NCBI GenBank assembly: GCA_045603405.1
Contig: JAZUMA010000015.1
Span: 54,933 to 118,932 of the forward strand
Length of the DNA: 64,000 nt
DNA from: Alphaproteobacteria bacterium
GTDB lineage: Bacteria; Pseudomonadota; Alphaproteobacteria; RF32; CAG-239
Direction of reading: 5' to 3'
The position numbers were made by a program, and so were the translations under genes. This document shows positions 7,664-64,000 of the stretch, one piece after another. The notes under the pieces are model-generated. The model was not told the DNA's origin. It saw only the letters and a list, made by a program, of their open reading frames with translations, and ran no database searches. Position 1 is the stretch's first letter. Every line of letters begins with the position of its first letter.

Positions 7664-8647
7664 TTACCTGCCACTGTTAATATCTTTTACTCCTCTTACC
7701 ACATTCTTTTGCACAGCATCATGAATTTTCTTTGCTTCTTTCCATTCTATTGCGCGCTTCGTCAGATATTTTATGCCTTCTTCATATGCTTTCTTGTCTT
7801 TCTGCTTATCTAGCACAACTTCATACACAAGACTTTTATCTTTTTTAACCTCTCTAAGTTGTTCTCTTAAATACTTTTCTCTTTTTTTACACATCTCATA
7901 TTCTTGTTGCAAAACACTATCAGGTACCTGTATATCTTCTCTAATACCATTTTTTCTAATATTATTATTTTCATTATTTTCACTTTTTTCCATAATCCTT
8001 CTTTCCACCGGTGACCACGCTTTATTCATTGCCATATTTTGCCGAATTAAATCAATTGCATTTACCCCTTTCTTATTTTCTCTATTAACATCAACACCTT
8101 TCTGTTCGGCCAAATATTTAGAAATTTCATACGCAGAAGCAAAATTTTTATTTTGCAATGCCAACATTAAACCTGTATTTCCATCTTTATCAACTGCATT
8201 CAAATTAGCGATTTTTAATGCTTCCACCACATCCTTTTTTTGACCTGTCTTACAAGCTTTCAAAAAACCATCATCATACTTCTTCTGGTACACAGACAGT
8301 TTTTCTTTAATTGTTTCCATCCTTTCCTTTAGCTCGTAAATTTCCTCAAATATCTTTTCTCTCTTTTCCGCTGAACTCGTTTTCGATGCATAAAAATAAT
8401 TGTGACTAGCATACGTATAATCCGCATCACTATATTCCCTTTTAAAAGCCTCAAATATTTCATAATCAGTAACCGAATCAGTAATCGATTGATCTTCAGA
8501 CTGATTTCCACAACTTATTGCCGTTAAACTCGCGCCACCGATTAACAAAGGAACAGCAACGCTCCCTGCTTTCTTCTTTAATTTCCTCGCTTTATTCTTC
8601 AGATCGTTTATTTTTTTCTTTACTTTTTCTTTTACGATTTTACTCAT
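7664..8647 (-). CDS. ankyrin-repeat protein with long basic N-region, lipobox-like LTAISC and coiled-coil segments (probable secreted/surface effector-like protein)
   Basis: 327 aa; ANK consensus GNTGLMLALQNKNFASAYEISKYLAEQKGVDVNRENKKGVNAIDLI; N-terminus MSKIVKEKVKKKINDLKNKARKLKKKAGSVAVPLLIGGASLTAISCGN; RBS AAAGGAG upstream. Confidence 0.75.
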   Translation of the reverse strand: MSKIVKEKVKKKINDLKNKARKLKKKAGSVAVPLLIGGASLTAISCGNQSEDQSITDSVTDYEIFEAFKREYSDADYTYASHNYFYASKTSSAEKREKIFEEIYELKERMETIKEKLSVYQKKYDDGFLKACKTGQKKDVVEALKIANLNAVDKDGNTGLMLALQNKNFASAYEISKYLAEQKGVDVNRENKKGVNAIDLIRQNMAMNKAWSPVERRIMEKSENNENNNIRKNGIREDIQVPDSVLQQEYEMCKKREKYLREQLREVKKDKSLVYEVVLDKQKDKKAYEEGIKYLTKRAIEWKEAKKIHDAVQKNVVRGVKDINSGR

Positions 8648-8955
8648 TTTCTTTCTCCTTTAGTTTAGACAGCACAAAAAATCCCGCAAAGAGCCACCCT
8701 CTTTACGAGATATTAAATCTGCCTGATTGTTGGTTAATTTTTCTCCCGGCAACACCTCTACATGTATGTATGTATGTATGTATGTATGTATGTATGTATG
8801 TATAAATCAATGACTTAGTGCTTTGCGAAGTCACAGCCCTATTCATCTTAATATTTAACATACTCCCACACATGGCATTCCCCTAGCTTTCACAACTATG
8901 CTAGAATAATACCATAAAAAAAACGTTAACGCAACAAAAAAAACATCACCTCTCT
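8640..8955. repeat. Repeat family A copy 1: ~300-bp duplicated 5' region (promoter/5'UTR/first codons MSK) shared with 34565-34870
   Basis: Near-identical blocks ttctcctttagtttagacagca(c/t)aaaaaatcccgcaaaga..., ..gacttagtgctttgc(g/a)aagtcac.gcc.tattcatcttaatat.taac..., ..ataaaaaaaacgttaac.caa.aaaaaaa in both copies, each immediately upstream of a minus-strand gene start. Confidence 0.75.
8762..8801. repeat. (ATGT)10 tetranucleotide microsatellite inside repeat family A copy 1, ~115-155 bp upstream of the ankyrin gene start
   Basis: catgtatgtatgtatgtatgtatgtatgtatgtatgtatgtataaatc read directly; paralogous copy at 34689-34722 has (ATGT)5 followed by (AT)5. Confidence 0.9.
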
Positions 8956-9075
8956 TCTTCCCCGTCATCCCTCTCGGGCGACTAATGTCGGCCGAGTCAA
9001 GGGATCTCCGCCCTCTCTCCAAGGGTAACATCTTCCCGTCACCACTCTCTCTTTCCGTCATTCCATCTTCCGTTA
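8950..9075. repeat. Repeat family C copy 1 (RPE-like, CT-rich, ORF-compatible element)
   Basis: Core caagggatctccgccctctctccaagggtaacatct (8998-9033) is identical to 38635-38670; minus-strand frame encodes MLPLERGRRSLD in both copies. Confidence 0.6.
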
Positions 9076-9327
9076 TTCTAAACAAAACCATGTTGAATTT
9101 GTTTTAGCATCCGCATAAGCTCTCAGATCGAGAGTTTTTTTTACCCGATGATTCTTAAAGTACCGATGTTAGAAACTTATTAGTAACCGCGATGTGCAAC
9201 AAAAGGTACATAAGCAAACATGATGCTTTTATGAGCAACATTATTCCTCATCACACACAATTTATAAAAAAATAACTTTTTTACGCTTGACTTTATAATT
9301 TATTATATGTAAAACAAAATGCACTAT

Positions 9328-9404
9328 GGCGGACGTAGCTCAGTTGGTAGAGCCCCGGTTTGTGGTACCGGTTGTCGTGAGTTCGAGCCTCATCGTCCGC
9401 CCCA
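9328..9404 (+). tRNA. tRNA-His (GUG) with encoded G-1 and CCA
   Basis: g-GCGGACG TA GCTC AGTTGGTA GAGC C CCGGT TTGTGGT ACCGG TTGTC GTGAG TTCGAGC CTCAT CGTCCGC C CCA; 7-bp acceptor perfectly paired, anticodon loop TT-GTG-GT, extra 5' G opposite discriminator C (His hallmark). Confidence 0.88.
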
Positions 9405-9434
9405 TTCTTAAAAAATTTCCCCACATAAACAACA

Positions 9435-9917
9435 TTAATGCCGCTGAAAGATTTTATGATTTACCGGTCTGTGTTCGTGTTTTTCAATATTTTTCCTATC
9501 TAACGGCTGAGCATGGCTTTGCTTTACATTATCATGCGAAGTTCTGCTTTTATCCGGCCTGTTCTTAGGAACATCATGCGAAGGTCTATCCTTTCTTATC
9601 TCATTCTTATGAACATCATGATGTTTATCATGCTCATGCTTTTTATCTATATGTTTTTTATCTTCATAATGCTTATCATGCACCGGTTTTTTATATTTAT
9701 AGTCAGATTTGTGATGCTTATAATGATGATGCTTCGGTGCCGGCGGACGATGATAATAATCCGTAGCCCATTCATAACTGCCAACCGGATAAAGATCATA
9801 AGAAGAATAGGAATAATAAGAAGAAGAATACAACTCATCATCAGGGACAACAATACATCCGCTCAATCCTGCTCCCACCACAAACAACACAAACAACGTT
9901 TTCACTTTTTTAATCAT
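9435..9917 (-). CDS. His/Lys-rich lipoprotein (signal peptide + LSGC lipobox, Tyr/Ser-rich segment, then long HxxH/DKKH-rich tail)
   Basis: 160 aa MIKKVKTLFVLFVVGAGLSGC...HHHYKHHKSDYKYKKPVHDKHYEDKKHIDKKHEHDKHHDVHKNE...; antisense 151-aa ORF considered spurious. Confidence 0.55.
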   Translation of the reverse strand: MIKKVKTLFVLFVVGAGLSGCIVVPDDELYSSSYYSYSSYDLYPVGSYEWATDYYHRPPAPKHHHYKHHKSDYKYKKPVHDKHYEDKKHIDKKHEHDKHHDVHKNEIRKDRPSHDVPKNRPDKSRTSHDNVKQSHAQPLDRKNIEKHEHRPVNHKIFQRH

Positions 9918-10081
9918 TTCGTACCTCTAAAAAATTATAGCATTTTACGAGCATTATCTGCTATCTGATAAAAAATTCAAGACCAAATAAAATTTTTTCT
10001 ATTCATAACCAAAATTAATAATTTATTTCCTTTTTAAAGTGTACTATAGTACAAAACAATTTTTGAAAGGATAAACTGAAA

Positions 10082-56338: not shown

Positions 56339-56364
56339 TTTAACTTTTTATGGAGAGTTTTATA

Positions 56365-56991
56365 ATGAAAAAGACTTTTTTATTGGCAGGAGTTGCCGCT
56401 TCATTGTTTGCTTTCAATGCAAACGCTTTTGATTTTCAGCAATACATTTCTGGAAAACTAACATATAGCGATATGTCTAATGATGTTAAGATAAAAGACT
56501 TCGACGGAGGTTCAGATAAAACAAATGTTGATGATAAAGTATGGGGAAGCAATTTTGCCTATGGTATAAAAAATAATGCCTTAAGAACAGAATTAGAATT
56601 GAACATTAACGATAAAGCAAAAAAGAGTCAGTTTCATGATGGAACAAATGAAAAAAGAGAATTAGAAAATAATTCAATTATGCTAAATGCATATTATGAC
56701 ATAAATACAGGAACTAAATTTACTCCGTATATTGGAGTAGGCATTGGTATGGCTAGATTAAAAGCAACATATTCTGATAATACGGGTGCAAACATCAGCA
56801 AACACAAAAATAATGTTGTTTGGCAATTAGGTGCAGGTATATCTTATACATTAACTGATAATACAGCTCTTGATTTAGGATATCGATATACCGATTCAGG
56901 AGATGTAACATTACATGATCAAGAAGGAAATAAAGCTAAATTTGATTCTCAAGCACATGAAATTTTACTCGGTATCAGATATACATTTTAA
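56365..56991 (+). CDS. outer-membrane beta-barrel protein (OmpA-like/Opacity porin family small OMP)
   Basis: Track ORF trimmed to ATG 56365 (MKKTFLLAGVAASLFAFNANA signal peptide) with GGAGAG SD; alternating amphipathic strands; C-terminal ...GIRYTF with terminal Phe. Confidence 0.6.
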   Translation: MKKTFLLAGVAASLFAFNANAFDFQQYISGKLTYSDMSNDVKIKDFDGGSDKTNVDDKVWGSNFAYGIKNNALRTELELNINDKAKKSQFHDGTNEKRELENNSIMLNAYYDINTGTKFTPYIGVGIGMARLKATYSDNTGANISKHKNNVVWQLGAGISYTLTDNTALDLGYRYTDSGDVTLHDQEGNKAKFDSQAHEILLGIRYTF

Positions 56992-57052: not shown

Positions 57053-57150
57053 CAAAAAATATAGCACTTTCTCACACAAATAAATCTTGAACTAAAGAAA
57101 AAAGTTCTTGATTTGCGTAAAGAAATGTTTTATAAGCATTTTAGCTTGAT

Positions 57151-57191
57151 AGGGGTATAGCTCAGTTGGTAGAGCATCGGTCTCCAAAACC
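57151..57191 (+). pseudogene. tRNA-Trp (CCA) 5' fragment: acceptor 5' strand, D-arm, anticodon stem-loop; no T-arm/3' half (probable att-site remnant)
   Basis: AGGGGTA TA GCTC AGTTGGTA GAGC A TCGGT CTCCAAA ACC then caaaatagaattttcc, which is not tRNA-like; typical Trp tRNA matches to position ~41 only. Confidence 0.55.
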
Positions 57192-57364: not shown

Positions 57365-58492
57365 ATGGTAAAAAGTTTTCCTGGAGTGCGAACAGCAAAT
57401 CGCATAAGAAATGGTAGAAAAGATATTTACTTTTCTATTCGCTATACCAAAAACGGTAAGCAATGTGAAGAAGGCATCGGTTATAAATCAGACGGATTTA
57501 CAGCAGAAAAAACCTACGAAATTTTAAAAGAATTAAAACAAGATATAAAAGCAGGTAAAGTATCTTCTTTACGCGACAAAAACAACCAACGCGAACAAGA
57601 AAGAATTGCTAATGAGGCGGCAAATATGACGTTCTCAGAGCTTTTTGAAGAATATTATCAGCCGCATATTCAAAATAAAGACAAAAAATCAACATATGAC
57701 AGAGAAGTTAACCTATATAAAGTATGGCTTAGACCTTTTTTGGGAGATGTTAGGTTAAACCTCATTAGCCTCAAAAGCCTCACTAGGTTAATTCAAGCTA
57801 TGGATAAAAAACATTTATCTAATCGTACAAAACGCTATGCTATAGCACTAACGCGACAAGTTCTTAATTTTGCAATTAAATATGAGCTATTTGCAGGGGA
57901 AAATCCGGCAGCAAGATTTGACGAGCTGAAAAAGGAAGATAATCAACGTGTAAAGTTTTTAAGCGAAGAAGATTTAAACAATCTTTTAGCAGAAATAAAG
58001 AAACATAGCTATCAAGTTTATGTAATGGCACTTATTTCCGCCGATTGCGGACTACGCGCCGGAGAAATTTTCAGACTAACTTGGGCTGATGTAAGCCTAG
58101 AAGAAAAAATGCTGTTTTTGCGTGATACAAAAAATGGCAAGAATCGTTATGCCTATATGACAGACCGTGTTTTTGATGAACTTTCAAAATTAAAACAGCA
58201 TGAAGGCAATGAATTAGTCTTTCAAAGCAGAGAGGGAAAGAAAATAGAACATGTTTCACGCACTTTTGAACGTGCAGTCAAAGCATTGGGATTAAATAAA
58301 GGTGTTACAGACCGCAGGCAAAAAGTAGTTTTTCATTCTTTAAGGCACACATTTGCCAGTCGGTTAGTGCAAAAACGCGTTTCACTTTACGAAGTCAAAG
58401 AACTGTTAGGACATTCCGATATTGCAATGACTCAACGCTATTCACACTTGGCAAATGAAACGCTACGAGAGGCTGTTTCTAAGCTTAATTAG
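57365..58492 (+). CDS. int: tyrosine-type site-specific recombinase/phage integrase
   Basis: 375 aa; C-terminal catalytic region HSLRHTFASRLVQKRVSLYEVKELLGHSDIAMTQRYSHL (R..HxxR...Y). Confidence 0.85.
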   Translation: MVKSFPGVRTANRIRNGRKDIYFSIRYTKNGKQCEEGIGYKSDGFTAEKTYEILKELKQDIKAGKVSSLRDKNNQREQERIANEAANMTFSELFEEYYQPHIQNKDKKSTYDREVNLYKVWLRPFLGDVRLNLISLKSLTRLIQAMDKKHLSNRTKRYAIALTRQVLNFAIKYELFAGENPAARFDELKKEDNQRVKFLSEEDLNNLLAEIKKHSYQVYVMALISADCGLRAGEIFRLTWADVSLEEKMLFLRDTKNGKNRYAYMTDRVFDELSKLKQHEGNELVFQSREGKKIEHVSRTFERAVKALGLNKGVTDRRQKVVFHSLRHTFASRLVQKRVSLYEVKELLGHSDIAMTQRYSHLANETLREAVSKLN

Positions 58493-58653
58493 AGCAGTTT
58501 AACATATTATTTTGTTTATTATTTCGGGGCTTTTTTTTAAGTTCCGCACTCAAAATATTTTTGCACCCAAAAAAGGTGAATTGAGGTCTTTGGTCGTTAT
58601 AGCGCGAAAAAACAATGGTGTTTTTTCATAACTTTCGAAAAAGGAAACGGAAA

Positions 58654-58986
58654 ATGAAGAAAAACAATGATTTATCGCCAAGATTCTTTGAAATTTACAA
58701 AAGTAAACTTCTCGAACAAGCACCTTTAATTAGCCGAGTTAAGCTTTGCGAAATACTCCCATTTCTGAGCAGAAACACATTACGAAATATTGATTATGAA
58801 AACCCAGAAAAAGGAATAGGCGAAGTTTACTACGTAAACGGCAAAGCTTACTATGATGTAAACGATGTAATCCTATACATAAAAAAGAAATTTTGCAACC
58901 CCGAAAATGAAAAGGAGAATACAAAAAATGAAATTATTAAAAGTCGACCACAAAATTTTAGTTATAAAAGCGGAGGTATGAAATGA
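58654..58986 (+). CDS. AlpA/excisionase-like small HTH protein (putative Xis/regulator of the element)
   Basis: Track ORF 58615-58986 trimmed to ATG 58654 (MKKNNDLSPRF...) with AGGAAA SD; LCEILPFLSRNTLRNIDYENPEKGIGEVYYVNGKAYYDVNDVILYIKK resembles AlpA-family HTH layout. Confidence 0.4.
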   Translation: MKKNNDLSPRFFEIYKSKLLEQAPLISRVKLCEILPFLSRNTLRNIDYENPEKGIGEVYYVNGKAYYDVNDVILYIKKKFCNPENEKENTKNEIIKSRPQNFSYKSGGMK

Positions 58987-61328
58987 AACTAAAAAACATT
59001 TTAATTGAACAAATGGAGCGAGAGGCGCAAGCCTCTCCACTCCCTCCGAGAGAAGATGTTAGCGCATCTGCTCTCAATAACCAAAATGTTTGCAATATCA
59101 ACGAAGCGACCAACTTTTTGGATATTGCTACATTTTACGCACAACGCAATATTAAAACCTTTCCGGTAAAAAAGCAAGGCAAATCACCGCTTTGCCCGCA
59201 TGGTTTTAATGACGCAACCGCTGATAAAGTCGTATTGCAGGAATGGAATAAGCAATTTCCAGATTGCAATATAGGCATTCCGACCGGAGCAATCAATAAT
59301 ATCTTTGTTGTTGATGTAGATGGTGAAAGCGGCGCAAAATCTTTAGCTGAGTTTGAAAATAAATATGGTAAACTCAAAGCCCCGACCGTTAGCACAGGAA
59401 AAGGTAAGCATTTGTATTTCAAAATGCCGGAATGGGTAGAAATCAAATGCAGTACGAGTAAAATAGCTCCGCATATTGATATACGCGGTAATGGAGGCTA
59501 TGTTGTAGCACCACCATCTATTCACGAAAACGGTAATAAATATACTTGGGTTAATTTTGACTTTAGTCAAGATTTTCCAACTGCGCCAGAATGGTTGATT
59601 GATTTAATTAACAATCCCGAAAAAACAGATATTGATATGTTGCTTGATGAAATAGCCAACGCTCCTGAGGGAACACGGAACGATAGATTGTTAAGTAATA
59701 CTATCAAAATTTGTAATAGTGCAGATAGACAATTTCGCGATATTTCCGAAATCAAAGAAGATGTTGTAAATGCCGCGCTTGAATCAGGATTAACAAAAGC
59801 AGAGACAGTAAAAACAGTTAGCAATGCTATCAAGTTTTCAGAGGCTCACAGCGATAATCAAGCAGACACAGAGCCGGATATGGATATCCTTAAAGCTAAG
59901 GACCTATTGCCGGCTCCACAGCTTGATACAAGCATCTTTAAAAGCTTAGAGCCGTGGGTAGTGCAAACGGCACAAAATACTAATGCGCCGGTTGACTATG
60001 TCGCATTTTCATTGCTAGCCGGCGCAGCAGGTGTTATTGGTTTGTCGCGCTCTGTTTCACCTTGGGCAGAATGGATAGAACCATGCTGTTTATGGATTGG
60101 TGCTGTCGGAGAGCCAAGCTCCGGCAAAACACCGGCAACTACTCCTATTCGGCGTATTCTGAATCAAATTGAGGAAGACCATAAAGAGCCTTATTTTGCA
60201 AAACTAGCAGAATGGAAACGTACTAGAGAAGTTGCTAAGCAACGCAAAAAAGAATGGGAAGAAAAGGTCAAAGAAAATCCCGATACTGCAAGCAATTTTC
60301 CAAATACCGCTATTATTCCGGCAAAACCGCAAACATATCGCTTTGTTTACGGTGATACTACGCAAGAGGCAATTACCAAGGATATGGAACGCAACATAAA
60401 AGGCGCTATTCTTTTCCGTGACGAATTGTCAGCGTGGATTTGTGGTATGAATCGCTATAATAGCGGCAGTTCCGAGCGCGGTTTTTGGCTTGAGGCTTTT
60501 AACGGCCACAAGTTTGTATGCGATCGCGTTAAATATGACGACGACCGCTTAGAAATTAAAAATCTATTGGTATCGGTGTTCGGTACTATACAGCCTCAAA
60601 GGCTCGTAGACACGGTTTTTGATGACCGCGGCGACGGCTTCCTTGCCCGTTTTCTTTGGGTGTATCCAGCGGTTATACCGCCTGCTATCCCGCAAAATAT
60701 TGCTTTACCGGACACGGCTCTGAAAGCATTGCAAAAACTGGACACTTTATTAGATCCATATGCAGATTTTGCAGAAGAACAGAAAAAATGCTTGCAATTA
60801 AGTATAAAAGCAAAAGATGTTTTTAGCACTTGGTATATTGAACATTTAACCAGAACCCAGCAGGAAGAAAGCAATATCAAATATTTTCTTGGCAAAGGAC
60901 AAGGTTATGTCCTTAGGCTTGCGTTACTTTTAGAGCTTTTGTGGTGGAGTAATTCGGAATTTACTGAGCCGACAGAAGTCAGCGAAGACGCGGTCAAGGC
61001 AGCTATAAATCTTTACGATACCTATTTATTACCTATGTGTGAACGTGTTTATTATATGTATTATAGTCCGGTATATAATATTGAAGCACGGGCATTGGCT
61101 CGATGGATTATCGAAAATAAATCTGAAAGCTTTATTTTACGTGATGTTTATAACAATGGCACAGTAAAATATCTGCGCCGTAAGGAGCCGACAGAAACTG
61201 CCGCTAAAAAATTGGTGGAGCTGAATTGGCTACGTTATGAATGCACGCGCGCCGGAACAACCAAAGGCAAACGCCGGACAACCTACTATGTAAATCCCGA
61301 AGTCTACACTTTGGCGGAAAATTATTAG
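58983..61328 (+). CDS. primase-helicase: N-terminal bifunctional Prim-Pol domain + C-terminal P-loop NTPase (D5/DUF3987-like)
   Basis: 781 aa; Prim-Pol region FPVKKQGKSPLCPHGFNDAT...IGIPTG..NNIFVVDVDGESG...IDIRGNGGYVVAPPSIHENGNKYTW; P-loop GAVGEPSSGKT; GGAGG SD. Confidence 0.7.
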   Translation: MKLKNILIEQMEREAQASPLPPREDVSASALNNQNVCNINEATNFLDIATFYAQRNIKTFPVKKQGKSPLCPHGFNDATADKVVLQEWNKQFPDCNIGIPTGAINNIFVVDVDGESGAKSLAEFENKYGKLKAPTVSTGKGKHLYFKMPEWVEIKCSTSKIAPHIDIRGNGGYVVAPPSIHENGNKYTWVNFDFSQDFPTAPEWLIDLINNPEKTDIDMLLDEIANAPEGTRNDRLLSNTIKICNSADRQFRDISEIKEDVVNAALESGLTKAETVKTVSNAIKFSEAHSDNQADTEPDMDILKAKDLLPAPQLDTSIFKSLEPWVVQTAQNTNAPVDYVAFSLLAGAAGVIGLSRSVSPWAEWIEPCCLWIGAVGEPSSGKTPATTPIRRILNQIEEDHKEPYFAKLAEWKRTREVAKQRKKEWEEKVKENPDTASNFPNTAIIPAKPQTYRFVYGDTTQEAITKDMERNIKGAILFRDELSAWICGMNRYNSGSSERGFWLEAFNGHKFVCDRVKYDDDRLEIKNLLVSVFGTIQPQRLVDTVFDDRGDGFLARFLWVYPAVIPPAIPQNIALPDTALKALQKLDTLLDPYADFAEEQKKCLQLSIKAKDVFSTWYIEHLTRTQQEESNIKYFLGKGQGYVLRLALLLELLWWSNSEFTEPTEVSEDAVKAAINLYDTYLLPMCERVYYMYYSPVYNIEARALARWIIENKSESFILRDVYNNGTVKYLRRKEPTETAAKKLVELNWLRYECTRAGTTKGKRRTTYYVNPEVYTLAENY

Positions 61329-61343
61329 AAATAAGAAAAAGAC

Positions 61344-61374
61344 AGGGCGAGTTTTACGATTCGCCCTTTTTATT
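61344..61374 (+). terminator. bidirectional rho-independent terminator between primase gene and minus-strand cargo operon
   Basis: agggcga-gttttacgat-tcgccct + ttttatt; upstream aagaaaaaga gives T-run on minus strand. Confidence 0.55.
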
Positions 61375-61376
61375 AG

Positions 61377-61667
61377 CTAACTCAATTGACCTAAAAATTT
61401 ATTGCCTTTATTCCATCTAGCTTCGTATTTATCCCGAACCTGATAAACCCAAATATCTGCACCATATTTATCATCAACCCAACAAATAACTGCTGTTGCA
61501 CCATATTCACTATCGGAAAAATACCAAATTTCATCTTTGCAATCAGCCTCATAAATATCTCTTGTTTTGTAGAACCATAAATCAGCTTCGTATTTATCGC
61601 TAACTAAAAACACTTTTACCACCTTCGGAAAAAAATATATATCATTTGTAGCATATATTTGCGCCAT
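61377..61667 (-). CDS. hypothetical repeat protein (five ~12-aa DKY.AD.W.Y repeats), last gene of cargo operon
   Basis: 96 aa: DKYEADLWFY / RDIYEADCKDEIWYF / DSEYGATAVICWV / DDKYGADIWVYQV / RDKYEARWNKG. Confidence 0.4.
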   Translation of the reverse strand: MAQIYATNDIYFFPKVVKVFLVSDKYEADLWFYKTRDIYEADCKDEIWYFSDSEYGATAVICWVDDKYGADIWVYQVRDKYEARWNKGNKFLGQLS

Positions 61668-61749
61668 TGTTTTTACCTTTCATGAAATAAAAAAACAGGC
61701 GCATCATCTTTTAAGATGCGCCATAAATAGAAGTCGTATAGAAACAAAA

Positions 61750-62382
61750 TTATTTCTGATTTACTTTTTGATTGTTAATTTCATCAAAGATTTTAATAAT
61801 TCGAGTTTTTAATTCATCATCTGATAGCGTAAAATTAGATTTCTGCTTTTTTATAACACCCGCAATAAATCTATCTACTTCTTCATACCATTTATCATAT
61901 ATTGTCTCACCATAATCGCCAACATAGACCAGTTCCTTATACTTTTCAGATAATATATTAAAATGTTCCTTGACAATAGAATAAAGCTGTTTTTTGTATA
62001 ATTTTTCTGCGTATTTTCTATATACAAAGCTAAACAAACCAATAACAAGAAAAGAGGTAATAACAACGCAAAAAGAAATTGAATCAGATTCAACACCTAA
62101 TGATTCAAAGAAAACAATTAATCCACCCAATAAAGGAAAAAAAATCAAAGTAACAAAAAGTATAAACCATGAGGAATAAGTAAAACTAACTTTTTTTGTA
62201 TTTCCAGATATTTTATTGCCAATTGCGTTCAACGCATGCGTAGAAGTAGATGCCGAAGCCTTTATAATTTTGACGATTATTAAAAATATAATAACACAAA
62301 TAAGGTAAATTATTGGTCCTATCGGCGGAACAATCAAACAACTTATTATAAAACCAAGTATTATCAAAAGCCATGCTATCAT
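61750..62382 (-). CDS. hypothetical membrane protein (4 TM) with ~90-aa cytoplasmic C-terminal domain
   Basis: 210-aa ORF; middle gene of cargo operon. Confidence 0.45.
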   Translation of the reverse strand: MIAWLLIILGFIISCLIVPPIGPIIYLICVIIFLIIVKIIKASASTSTHALNAIGNKISGNTKKVSFTYSSWFILFVTLIFFPLLGGLIVFFESLGVESDSISFCVVITSFLVIGLFSFVYRKYAEKLYKKQLYSIVKEHFNILSEKYKELVYVGDYGETIYDKWYEEVDRFIAGVIKKQKSNFTLSDDELKTRIIKIFDEINNQKVNQK

Positions 62383-62403
62383 GTCTATTTCTCCTTTTTT
62401 CTA

Positions 62404-63249
62404 TTATTTGCACAAACCAGCCGCCCCATTACTGGTACAGCATTTAAGACTCTTATCATAAAGGTACGTTTGGTATTCTATTTCGGATATTTTGAAATTT
62501 GATTTTTTAAATGCCCTAATTCTCTTATTCTTCCAGTTATATATTCCAATATCTTTATGTAAATATTGCCAGTCTTTGTAGCATTCTCCATCGGCATAAT
62601 CATCGTCAGTATAAATGAAATATTCTTTTTCCTCACATCCAATAAGAGGATTAAGAAATAGATTTGCTAAAGGAGAAAATGTACAGCCACTTCTTACGAC
62701 AATTCCCGTATTATCATAACCGATTACCTTTAAACAGAAACTCCAGTTACTTGTACGATTCTCCGGATTAGAAGTTATAGTTTCATCCAATATCATTAAA
62801 TTGCCTTCAGAGTTGTTAAGTTCAGTATTACGTAGTTTAGCCTTTTCCATAGCCCGTTTGCAATCACTCACCTTTTCCTCTTTTTCTTTTTGTACTTTTA
62901 AAATGCTTGCCTTGTATTGTGCATATTTAGCAATATCCTCCGGGCGTTCTTCTGAACAAATTTCACAAGCTTTCAGTAATTTATCAAAAACATTATCGGC
63001 AGTATCAATCGTCAAAGTTTGATATGTTTTATTAGTATCAGTCCAATCTTTACCATATTGAATGTTTGATATGTATTGAATATTCTTATCACTATCATAT
63101 CTAAAATAATCAGAAAGAAAATGACAACTATTTGGTATTTCTGCCCTAACGTTTTTATACTGTTCTTTAAGAGCTATAAGCCTTTCATTAGTACACCCAA
63201 TTAACATCAACAAAACTAATAAAAAAAACTTTTTCATTATACACTCCAC
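62404..63249 (-). CDS. hypothetical Cys-rich lipoprotein, first gene of cargo operon
   Basis: 281 aa; MKKFFLLVLLMLIGC lipobox; 14 Cys. Confidence 0.45.
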   Translation of the reverse strand: MECIMKKFFLLVLLMLIGCTNERLIALKEQYKNVRAEIPNSCHFLSDYFRYDSDKNIQYISNIQYGKDWTDTNKTYQTLTIDTADNVFDKLLKACEICSEERPEDIAKYAQYKASILKVQKEKEEKVSDCKRAMEKAKLRNTELNNSEGNLMILDETITSNPENRTSNWSFCLKVIGYDNTGIVVRSGCTFSPLANLFLNPLIGCEEKEYFIYTDDDYADGECYKDWQYLHKDIGIYNWKNKRIRAFKKSNFKISEIEYQTYLYDKSLKCCTSNGAAGLCK

Positions 63250-63392
63250 TGCGAAAAAGGAATAATTTAAAACACAGTGTAATGTGTATTAGATTCGGTG
63301 TCAATCAAAATTACAATAAAAAACACAGCCAACCGTTATGGTATTTAACACATTAAAATGTGAAAATAACCGGTGATCTGAAAGGCTGAAAA

Positions 63393-63740
63393 ATGATTGA
63401 ATCAACGCAAATTTTAAAAATATTAGGCAAAAGAATTGCTACACTCCGCAAGCAGCAAGGAATGAATCAAGAGGAATTTGCGGATGTTTCCGGCAAAATG
63501 ATTAACACAATTTCCAATATAGAACGCGGTTTAAGCGATCCTAAAGTAACTACTTTGTTGTCTTTAGCACAAGCATTAAATGTTCCTGTCGATTCTTTAT
63601 TTAACGGCAACGAACAACAACCGATTGAAGAACTACCAGAGAACGTGCAAGCCATTGTAAAACTGATTAAAAACCAAGATAGCCACACATTAAGAGTTAT
63701 TCAAAAACAAATTGAGGCACTTCTAGAGCTAAAGAGGTAA
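63393..63740 (+). CDS. XRE-family (Cro/CI-type) HTH transcriptional regulator
   Basis: 115 aa; LRKQQGMNQEEFADVSGKMINTISNIERGLSDPKVTTLLSLAQALNVPVDSLF. Confidence 0.7.
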   Translation: MIESTQILKILGKRIATLRKQQGMNQEEFADVSGKMINTISNIERGLSDPKVTTLLSLAQALNVPVDSLFNGNEQQPIEELPENVQAIVKLIKNQDSHTLRVIQKQIEALLELKR

Positions 63741-63816
63741 CGTTTAAAAATAAATAGATATTGAGATTTTGATTTTATTAATATACAATTCAGGCATATT
63801 TTATAAGGTGCTCGGA

Positions 63817-64000
63817 ATGAATATTAATGGGATAAATATAAAAAGAACTGACAAAAACACTGTAATTTGCAAAGTTACTTCTTTTACAAATGAATTACAG
63901 CAGATAATTATAGAAAAAATTGCATCTATTGCACGTGGAAAAAATGGCACATATTTTTCGCATAATGAGATATTACGTGAAATGCTGGATATATGTCAAA
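63817..64000 (+). CDS. hypothetical protein, N-terminal part (runs off window)
   Basis: ATG at 63817, open to end of window (61 codons). Confidence 0.3.
   Translation, partial: MNINGINIKRTDKNTVICKVTSFTNELQQIIIEKIASIARGKNGTYFSHNEILREMLDICQ

Follow-up and report, generated by a model that had tools for sequence, protein, structure and literature searches.

What do three closely packed genes beside the primase of a small integrated island encode, and do they belong together? The question arises in a stretch of 64,000 nt from an Alphaproteobacteria bacterium (RF32; CAG-239; assembly GCA_045603405.1, contig JAZUMA010000015.1, positions 54,933 to 118,932 of the forward strand), which we call the window (W) and compared with related loci (L001 to L039) and individual homologous proteins (P numbers). 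Two of the three genes, for a cysteine-rich lipoprotein and a membrane protein with four transmembrane (TM) helices, form a co-oriented, closely spaced cassette that occupies one of two variable slots in the island. The third, for a repeat protein of family PF19647, appears to be a separate island gene and not a member of the cassette. As to function, we tentatively suggest that the pair acts at the cell envelope against incoming phages or other mobile elements.

All three open reading frames (ORFs) are read from the minus strand: 61377-61667 (96 aa), 61750-62382 (210 aa) and 62404-63249, with intergenic gaps of 82 and 21 bp. They are flanked by the 3' end of the primase gene and a hairpin at 61344-61367 on one side and by a divergent HTH_3/XRE gene on the other. 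This hairpin likely terminates transcription in both directions, its use on the minus strand being read from the sequence. A first reading of the same DNA (the original prediction) had described three tightly spaced genes between a primase terminator and a divergent Cro/CI-type regulator, encoding a Cys-rich lipoprotein, a 4-TM protein and a protein with Tyr/Ala-Asp/Trp repeats, all within a mobile element. The ORF coordinates, the hairpin, the regulator's HTH_3 match, the properties of the proteins, and the presence of an integrase, a PrimPol/DUF3987 primase and a 42-nt tRNA-Trp half-site agree with that description. What did not hold was the grouping into a three-gene cargo operon, as the exchangeable unit comprises two genes and the PF19647 gene stays put behind a conserved hairpin. 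The features of this part of the window are:

61344-61367, no strand assigned: GC-rich hairpin between the convergent primase and PF19647 genes (terminator scan of the plus strand; 10-bp stem)
61377-61667, minus strand: PF19647 (DUF6150/'Septknot') protein, 96 aa, with D-x-Y-[EG]-A-D...W repeats (Pfam E=3.4e-15)
61690-61722, minus strand: terminator-like hairpin and T-run at the cassette boundary (fold, covariation)
61730-63236, minus strand: exchangeable two-gene cassette (blastn homology breakpoints against sister islands)
61750-62382, minus strand: 4-TM inner-membrane protein, 210 aa, cassette gene 2 (ORF, positive-inside topology)
62404-63237, minus strand: Cys-rich lipoprotein, 277 aa, cassette gene 1 (ORF, lipobox LIGC)
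63272-63362, no strand assigned: two operator-like palindromes, CACA-N6/7-TGTG (repeat search)
63276-63304, minus strand: promoter-like TTGACA-17-TACACT (10 of 12 matches)
63393-63740, plus strand: XRE/Cro-CI-type HTH regulator, 115 aa, a backbone gene divergent from the cassette (Pfam HTH_3 1.8e-15)

The limits of the exchangeable unit were determined by comparison with four sister islands (L006, L007, L017 and L021). In blastn alignments these are 80-97% identical to the window from the attachment site through the PF19647 gene. Their homology ends at 61729 and returns exactly at 63237, the lipoprotein start codon, from where it continues at about 86% nucleotide identity through the XRE gene (63237-63730). 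Between the two breakpoints, the sister islands carry a PD-(D/E)XK (PDDEXK_4) gene and three small membrane proteins in place of the lipoprotein and TM genes. The slot therefore has a fixed frame, running from the XRE-divergent promoter and 5' region up to the first start codon at one end, with the 61690-61722 hairpin and the PF19647 gene at the other.

A search with the primase as query yielded 11 related loci from species-representative genomes, and protein-identity look-ups added further loci. All 11 are from metagenome-assembled genomes of uncultured Alphaproteobacteria, sampled from rumen, yak rumen and Hadza. Our own ORF clustering revealed at least eight different slot contents in the 11 genome loci plus the metagenome loci, as expected of hotspot cargo. 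In addition to the PDDEXK_4 cassette described above, slot 1 was found to hold:

L001, L019, L039: a lipoprotein with a different C-terminal domain and the TM protein
L008 to L012, L027, L037, L038: an unrelated lipoprotein (c13) and the TM protein
L018: a lipoprotein and two SHOCT-TM proteins, one with ankyrin repeats
L020: a lipoprotein, PDDEXK_4, small ORFs and a DEDDh exonuclease
L023, L024: a DnaB_C-like ATPase, small ORFs and PDDEXK_4
L025: a GIY-YIG protein matching UzuA of the Uzume system (PADLOC E=5e-43)
L026: another lipoprotein, a MORN-like protein and PDDEXK_4

The PDDEXK_4 protein resembles the candidate defence family PDC-S26 (1.5e-7). Small ORFs (c18, c54, c89) recur in the primase-proximal part of the slot at L020 (12400-13416), L023 (12387-14469) and L025 (9996-11271), where a DEDDh exonuclease or DnaB_C-like ATPase together with small ORFs sometimes replaces the PF19647 gene.

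The second slot, on the far side of the XRE gene, is equally variable. In relatives it contains PDC-M19A/B (1e-102 and 8e-100), HATPase_c_3 with a PD-(D/E)XK-like protein, bSEFIR (1.1e-95), or a type II restriction-enzyme-like protein, REase_II (4e-28). At L018, slot 2 (8161-10012) holds a DUF1837/HamA-like gene with a weak HamA match (6e-4), followed by a HamB helicase (PADLOC 9.4e-31), a Hachiman-like system. The window is 79% identical in nucleotide sequence to L018 over 62873-63998, and its own second slot opens at 63817 with the 5' end of the same type of HamA-like gene, cut by the window end. Since sister islands fill both slots with recognized or candidate anti-phage genes (UzuA, PDC-S26-like nucleases, HamB, bSEFIR and PDC-M19A/B), the cargo and defence position that had been ascribed to the three genes is well supported.

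Within slot 1, the lipoprotein and TM genes behave as a unit. In every context recovered (W, L001-3/19, L008-12/27/37/38, L033-35, L036 and L039), the TM gene lies directly downstream of a lipoprotein gene, encoding either one of the two domain combinations A+X and A+Y or c13. This adjacency persists in decayed islands and in loci without an island, from which the integrase, primase and Septknot genes are gone. A metagenome scan with the TM family recovered only three more loci, all with the same architecture. Homologs thus co-occur and sit in mobile elements, as the original prediction would have it, and are not scattered singletons. The 238-aa c13 lipoprotein was considered as a divergent member of the lipoprotein family and rejected, as its hhalign alignment covers only the signal peptide.

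The lipoprotein most likely starts at the ATG at 63237, 8 nt downstream of a GGAG, which yields a 277-aa protein beginning MKKFF. Its N terminus, MKKFFLLVLLMLIGC, is a signal peptide ending in the lipobox LIGC, which matches the pattern [LVI][ASTVI][GAS]C. The lipobox cysteine, Cys15, is invariant in 18/18 homologs, and because there is no Asp at position +2 the protein is probably anchored in the outer membrane. It contains 12 Cys, 11 of them in the mature protein. The architecture is modular, with an N-terminal domain A (or B), a long K/E-rich helix and, at the C terminus, either the beta-rich Cys domain X or domain Y; the combinations A+X, A+Y and B+X all occur among the 18 homologs. Of the 14 homologs with domain X, 13-14 retain six of its Cys. 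The domain is also found fused to LysM, MORN_2 and SHOCT-plus-ankyrin architectures; we read domain X as a putative periplasmic, disulfide-bonded module. The family is small: it has 18 close relatives, and an exhaustive profile search of 1.84 billion proteins turned up only 67 representatives.

The TM gene is preceded by a GGAG 9 nt upstream of its start. The predicted protein has four hydrophobic helices; the loop at residues 38-70 has five K/R and zero D/E, the loop at 94-102 is acidic, and the segment after helix 4 opens with RKYAEKLYKK. This charge distribution around the helices predicts an N-in/C-in topology with a cytoplasmic C-terminal domain of about 90 residues. Across the 14 relatives, all 16 invariant columns fall in this helical domain. 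The window protein is a mosaic. Its residues 1-57 are 70% identical to the type partnered with c13, residues 66-125 are 49% identical to the A+Y-partnered type and only 17% to the c13 type, and the cytoplasmic domain is 65-68% identical to both. Helices 3 and 4 thus track the type of the lipoprotein's N-terminal domain, though the two coding segments are not adjacent, which hints at physical contact between these helices and domain A, on the basis of three types only. Two near-identical variants on short metagenome contigs (P0019 and P0020; 155-159 aa) lack helix 3 and the beginning of helix 4 (residues ~57-108) and are either natural deletion alleles or assembly artefacts.

The original prediction had assigned none of the three proteins to a recognized family, which stands for the lipoprotein and the TM protein but not for the 96-aa protein, a PF19647 member at 56.3 bits. 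The lipoprotein has no match above noise in Pfam, NCBIfam or PHROG, and no PDB sequence match with either a single sequence or a profile. Against PADLOC-DB 2.0 it gave only a chance-level match to WGR_XIII (E=0.035), and its similarity to the Cor/Llp-type PHROG 1119 (E=0.068) is confined to residues 1-26, the signal peptide. The TM protein matched nothing in Pfam, NCBIfam, PHROG or PADLOC and had no sequence or profile match in the PDB. AlphaFold2 (AF2) models have a pLDDT of 69 for the lipoprotein, best over residues 70-140, and of 65 for the all-helical TM protein; neither had a Foldseek match at E<0.1 in PDB or BFVD, so that no housekeeping fold was matched, and the PADLOC comparison assigned neither to a defence family. 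The possibility that the TM protein is a divergent member of the T4 Imm family (PF14373) was also considered, in a test that included the membrane motif LNLFLGWT..GW..AL.WA, and rejected; hhalign against PF14373-bearing neighbours of lipoprotein homologs gave a probability of 0.2%, and there was no Pfam match at E<=1.

Lipoprotein homologs have diverse membrane-protein partners, including bPH_2 proteins, SHOCT-TM proteins and PF14373 'Imm_superinfect' proteins in addition to the TM protein. The closest full-length homolog, P0003 (57% identity; L028), occupies the same XRE-divergent slot and is followed by an Imm_superinfect protein, and another homolog is preceded by a SHOCT+Imm_superinfect fusion protein. 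The PF14373 family takes its name from Imm of phage T4, a protein that keeps superinfecting phage from injecting DNA. In L030 (401-6198), L031 and L032, a lipoprotein homolog clusters beside an invertase-type resolvase with one or two near-duplicate SHOCT-DUF805-PilS-like genes (the copy number varies by contig), a SHOCT+Imm_superinfect gene and a second Cys-rich lipoprotein. This cluster looks like a variable, possibly phase-variable, surface locus. B+X homologs (L004 8480-12021; L013 7511-8906; L029 649-2125) are consistently preceded by a bPH_2 (PF03703) membrane protein, the two reading frames overlapping in L004 and L013. This pair lies beside serine recombinases in L004/L005 and L013-15, and an ankyrin-repeat protein follows in L004.

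Nearly every related island has the XRE gene beside the slot. Upstream of the lipoprotein gene, the promoter-like TTGACA-17-TACACT falls inside the intergenic backbone that is conserved with the four sister islands carrying the PDDEXK_4 cassette. By itself, this site is weak evidence, because such sites are no more numerous in the region than in shuffled sequences. One of the two palindromes (63272-63287) overlaps its -10 element, while the second (63348-63362) precedes the XRE start; both are presumed binding sites of the XRE protein.

From these observations we infer, with some hesitation, that the pair is an envelope-level module that blocks the entry of phages or other mobile elements. The XRE protein would control both divergent promoters, and the pair would be made from the integrated island. 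The lipoprotein, probably held in the outer membrane, would project its disulfide-rich domain X into the periplasm on a long helical stalk, and its partner in the inner membrane would be the 4-TM protein, with a conserved domain on the cytoplasmic side. Together they would keep phages or competing mobile elements out, at adsorption or at DNA translocation, in a mode like that of T4 Imm/Sp, F-plasmid TraS/TraT and the prophage lipoproteins Cor, Llp and Ltp, an analogy of action and not of descent. Support for the proposal comes from the behavior of the pair as a unit in a slot with a fixed frame and defence-gene contents, and from the apparent coupling between TM helices 3-4 and the N-terminal domain of the lipoprotein. 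The lipobox, the 11 mature Cys, the predicted topology and the domain X fusions place the pair at the envelope, the PF14373 neighbours of lipoprotein homologs link it to superinfection immunity, and the overlap of promoter-like site and palindrome points to its expression.

Several results weigh against this proposal. Neither protein matches any superinfection-exclusion (Sie), abortive-infection (Abi) or defence family in PADLOC, PHROG, Pfam or NCBIfam, and the TM protein is unrelated to Imm_superinfect. No relative of any of the three slot genes was found in IMG/VR, the three proteins had no phage match in INPHARED, and the PF19647 protein had no plasmid match in PLSDB; a phage precedent is thus missing. 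Defence hotspots also carry non-defence cargo, and some lipoprotein homologs adjoin invertase-type resolvases, ankyrin or pilin-like genes, neighbours that could indicate surface variation or host interaction. Finally, the TM protein exposes almost nothing to the periplasm, so a signalling or effector role fits as well as blocking.

This last point leads to abortive infection, in which the periplasmic lipoprotein would sense phage attack and the 4-TM protein would be the effector, acting through its cytoplasmic domain or by membrane disruption in the manner of RexB, KwaA and other TM effectors, so that the infected cell stops growing or dies. The hotspot evidence applies here as it does to entry blocking. 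Moreover, conservation in the pair is highest in the cytoplasmic domain, with its 16 invariant columns, the periplasmic loops of the TM protein are tiny, and lipoproteins of three types, unrelated or shuffled, can serve as the partner, as would suit a sensor module. The TM protein nevertheless shows no similarity to known TM effectors or to the Kiwa and Rex models in PADLOC, no enzymatic motif is recognizable, and the Imm_superinfect partners of lipoprotein homologs favour entry blocking. We regard abortive infection as unlikely.

Similarly unlikely is that the pair is non-defence 'lysogenic conversion' cargo which alters the host surface, for instance to affect adhesion, envelope stress or the resistance to factors from a host or protists, by analogy with lambda Bor and TraT-like serum-resistance lipoproteins. 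Outside the island, lipoprotein homologs adjoin bPH_2, SHOCT, DUF805/PilS-like and ankyrin-repeat genes as well as invertase-type resolvases, and the gut and rumen hosts encode adhesin-like outer-membrane proteins, a VirB8-domain protein and Sel1/Ank proteins. However, the island slot is otherwise filled by nucleases and recognized defence genes. The pair is kept with XRE even in decayed islands, which is compatible with either reading.

The remaining gene of the three encodes the 96-aa protein, which matches PF19647 over residues 16-90 (model positions 21-94 of 98; gathering cutoff 27 bits). The family is named DUF6150 in the Pfam copy we used and Septknot in the precomputed annotation of relatives. 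The protein contains five clear D-x-Y-[EG]-A-[DTR]...W repeats and a degenerate sixth, and the five repeats are invariant in 10 homologs. The gene is present in 7/10 genome loci with a visible slot, and in one case (L024) it lies elsewhere within the slot.

That the lipoprotein, TM and PF19647 genes form one operon and one functional system would account for their shared strand and short gaps, and the same gene order recurs in W, L001-3/19, L008-12/27/37/38 and L039. A promoter scan of the region also gave no convincing separate promoter for the PF19647 gene, and partial read-through into this gene may occur for that reason. Three results make a single system improbable. First, the PF19647 gene is kept when the cassette changes, and is therefore outside the swappable pair; its copy in L006 is 96% identical beside the PDDEXK_4 cassette that replaces the pair there. 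Second, the pair occurs without the PF19647 gene (L033-36), and the PF19647 gene without the pair (L006, L017, L018, L021 and L024). Third, the hairpin at 61690-61722 separates them. It consists of an 8-bp stem and a T-run directly upstream of the PF19647 ribosome-binding site (-18 kcal/mol, z=-2.6), and in an alignment of nine distinct loci it retains eight pairs, three of which show compensatory double changes. A simple terminator scan missed it, apparently because its 9-nt loop exceeds the 3-8 nt allowed. As the homology breakpoint falls just upstream of this hairpin, it is part of the backbone, and it looks like a terminator for whichever cassette occupies the slot. Between the T-run and the PF19647 start codon (61668-61689, minus strand), a 10-bp palindrome, TTTCATGAAA, overlaps the ribosome-binding region and is kept in most sister loci; it could be a protein-binding site.

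A polymorphic toxin/immunity pair, with the lipoprotein C-terminal X or Y as exchangeable toxin and the downstream membrane protein as immunity protein, is highly improbable: the lipoprotein domains are indeed shuffled (A+X, A+Y, B+X), and W and L001 differ over a segment that spans the lipoprotein's C-terminal domain and the initial TM helices of the protein encoded next, but within the lipoprotein X is better conserved than the other half, no secretion or delivery machinery accompanies the pair, and the partners are promiscuous. X is combined with four or more unrelated membrane proteins, and a single TM family with X, Y and c13, the opposite of cognate toxin-immunity specificity.

The closest point of reference for the PF19647 protein is Q9PR55, an 89-residue protein with a 7(1) 'septoil' knot, pseudo-fivefold symmetry and five conserved SFPD loops (PMC10840475). 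Its function is not known, and it is highly resistant to ClpXP (PMC10840475). The 96-aa protein is alike in its length of about 90 aa, its five loop motifs and its pseudo-fivefold pattern, and the family label Septknot agrees by name with a 7(1) knot. In contrast, the motif in the window is D-x-Y-E-A-D and not SFPD, and a profile of the local PF19647 subfamily does not reach PDB entry 8JRM/Q9PR55. A more specific version of our proposal combines these elements. The pair would be a two-component envelope system against phages and other mobile genetic elements that has not been described before, and the 7(1)-knot-family neighbour would be a fixed accessory factor of defence-carrying mini-islands; we consider this combination possible but doubtful. 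In that case specificity would lie with the exchangeable periplasmic lipoprotein, and the response would be transduced or carried out by the conserved cytoplasmic domain. The PF19647 protein would be, for example, a protease-resistant regulator or a counter-defence protein.

The island that carries the cassette has these further features in the window:

57150-57191, plus strand: attL, the 5' 42 nt of tRNA-Trp(CCA), left end of the island (island-end alignment)
57365-61328, plus strand: island backbone of integrase, 123-aa ORF and PrimPol/DUF3987 primase (Pfam, PHROG)
63817-64000, plus strand: start of the second cargo slot, 5' end of a DUF1837/HamA-like gene (translation, homology to L018)

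The integrase gene (57365-58492; Pfam Phage_integrase 8.9e-34) is followed by the 123-aa ORF (58615-58986), which measures 123-148 aa across islands, and by the primase gene (58983-61328; Prim-Pol 6.4e-42, DUF3987 2.8e-61; PHROG primase and helicase families). The gene order across islands is integrase, small ORF, PrimPol/DUF3987, slot 1 on the opposite strand, XRE, slot 2 and tRNA half, and complete sister islands hold only these elements. Islands measure about 10 kb, complete sister islands about 9.6 kb (8169-17841 in L017), and the window copy continues past base 64000.

Alignment of both island ends revealed that the attachment site consists of the first 42 nt of tRNA-Trp(CCA). In six relatives an intact tRNA-Trp lies at the integrase-distal end, and therefore the island brings a new 5' tRNA half while the old 5' half remains beside the integrase. 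The region upstream of the island-borne tRNA half is conserved among islands (L017 17748-17876, with a TTGATTT box) and may be the promoter of the rebuilt tRNA. ARAGORN and Rfam detected no tRNA at the integrase end in the window, where the half-site was recognized only by the island-end alignment. To the left of this half-site, the segment at 57098-57149 resembles the island-borne region more than the chromosomal flanks of relatives, which hints at serial integration or a remnant. Tandem islands were considered and rejected, as a search for a second tRNA-Trp half-site in the window found none and the half-site is single copy. Between RsfS and the attachment site lies a gene for a 213-aa outer-membrane beta-barrel protein (56350-56991), with weak similarity, below the cutoff, to the rickettsial adhesin Adr family (1.1e-18). 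L006 lacks this gene: there the island, at the same chromosomal site, lies directly against RsfS.

Hotspots of mobile elements that take up interchangeable cargo are already known. The libraries searched contain no description of the island family, its targeting of the 5' half of tRNA-Trp, the two slots around the XRE gene or the two orphan protein families, and the pair is a plausible new candidate. The fixed PF19647 gene in mobile defence islands gives a new and reproducible genomic context to a family that has so far been a structural curiosity; it would be the first biological context for that family if the protein is an accessory factor. Should the pair protect against phages, it would represent a new envelope-level mechanism from two orphan protein families, and the satellite-like islands would be plug-in defence carriers with two slots, a fixed promoter, a terminator-like hairpin and tRNA-Trp targeting. 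They would then be a practical hunting ground for new systems in a poorly studied clade. Even if the pair is ordinary surface cargo, the comparative map corrects the operon model and identifies the Hachiman-like genes that start at the window edge.

Among known envelope systems, T4 Imm and Sp and the prophage proteins Cor, Llp and Ltp provide superinfection exclusion at the envelope. The cassette resembles them in combining a small inner-membrane protein with a periplasmic or lipid-anchored protein, in a mobile element and near a repressor gene. It differs in that the window proteins have no sequence or fold relation to Imm, Cor, Llp or Ltp, and in that the 277-aa lipoprotein is much larger and modular. 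On the F plasmid, the outer-membrane lipoprotein TraT (~25 kDa) and the small, very hydrophobic inner-membrane protein TraS exclude incoming DNA of related elements. There too a lipoprotein gene adjoins a gene for a small hydrophobic inner-membrane protein. However, the window lipoprotein has no Pfam match to TraT or any other family at E<=1, and the island is without conjugation genes.

As a carrier, the island had been called PICI-like in the original prediction, a comparison that stands as an architectural resemblance only. An integrase and a primase are present, but the 123-aa ORF has no AlpA domain in Pfam, and none of the island genes was assigned to a named packaging or capsid family, several small ORFs still being without a family. 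The PICMIs of Vibrionaceae are minimalist satellites in which a defence hotspot follows the DUF3987 primase and int and alpA are also present, and are defined by int, AlpA (PF05930/PF12728) and a DUF3987 primase with integration at fis (PMC10803314). P4-like satellites have hotspots in which different recognized defence systems stand alongside unknown genes (PMC9122126). With both, the island shares its nature as a small integrative element with an integrase, a small ORF, a DUF3987-type primase and a variable locus beside the primase. Of the PICMI hallmarks it has the integrase and the DUF3987 primase; AlpA was not detected and the island lies in tRNA-Trp and not in fis, which makes this a resemblance and not membership. 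From P4 it differs in its integration in the 5' half of tRNA-Trp instead of the P4 sites, and psu, sid and delta were not assigned. It also differs from both in having two slots that flank an XRE regulator and in residing in uncultured Alphaproteobacteria of the gut and rumen. In a PICMI, a formerly unknown hotspot gene, UP2, was shown to be a new defence gene (PMC10803314).

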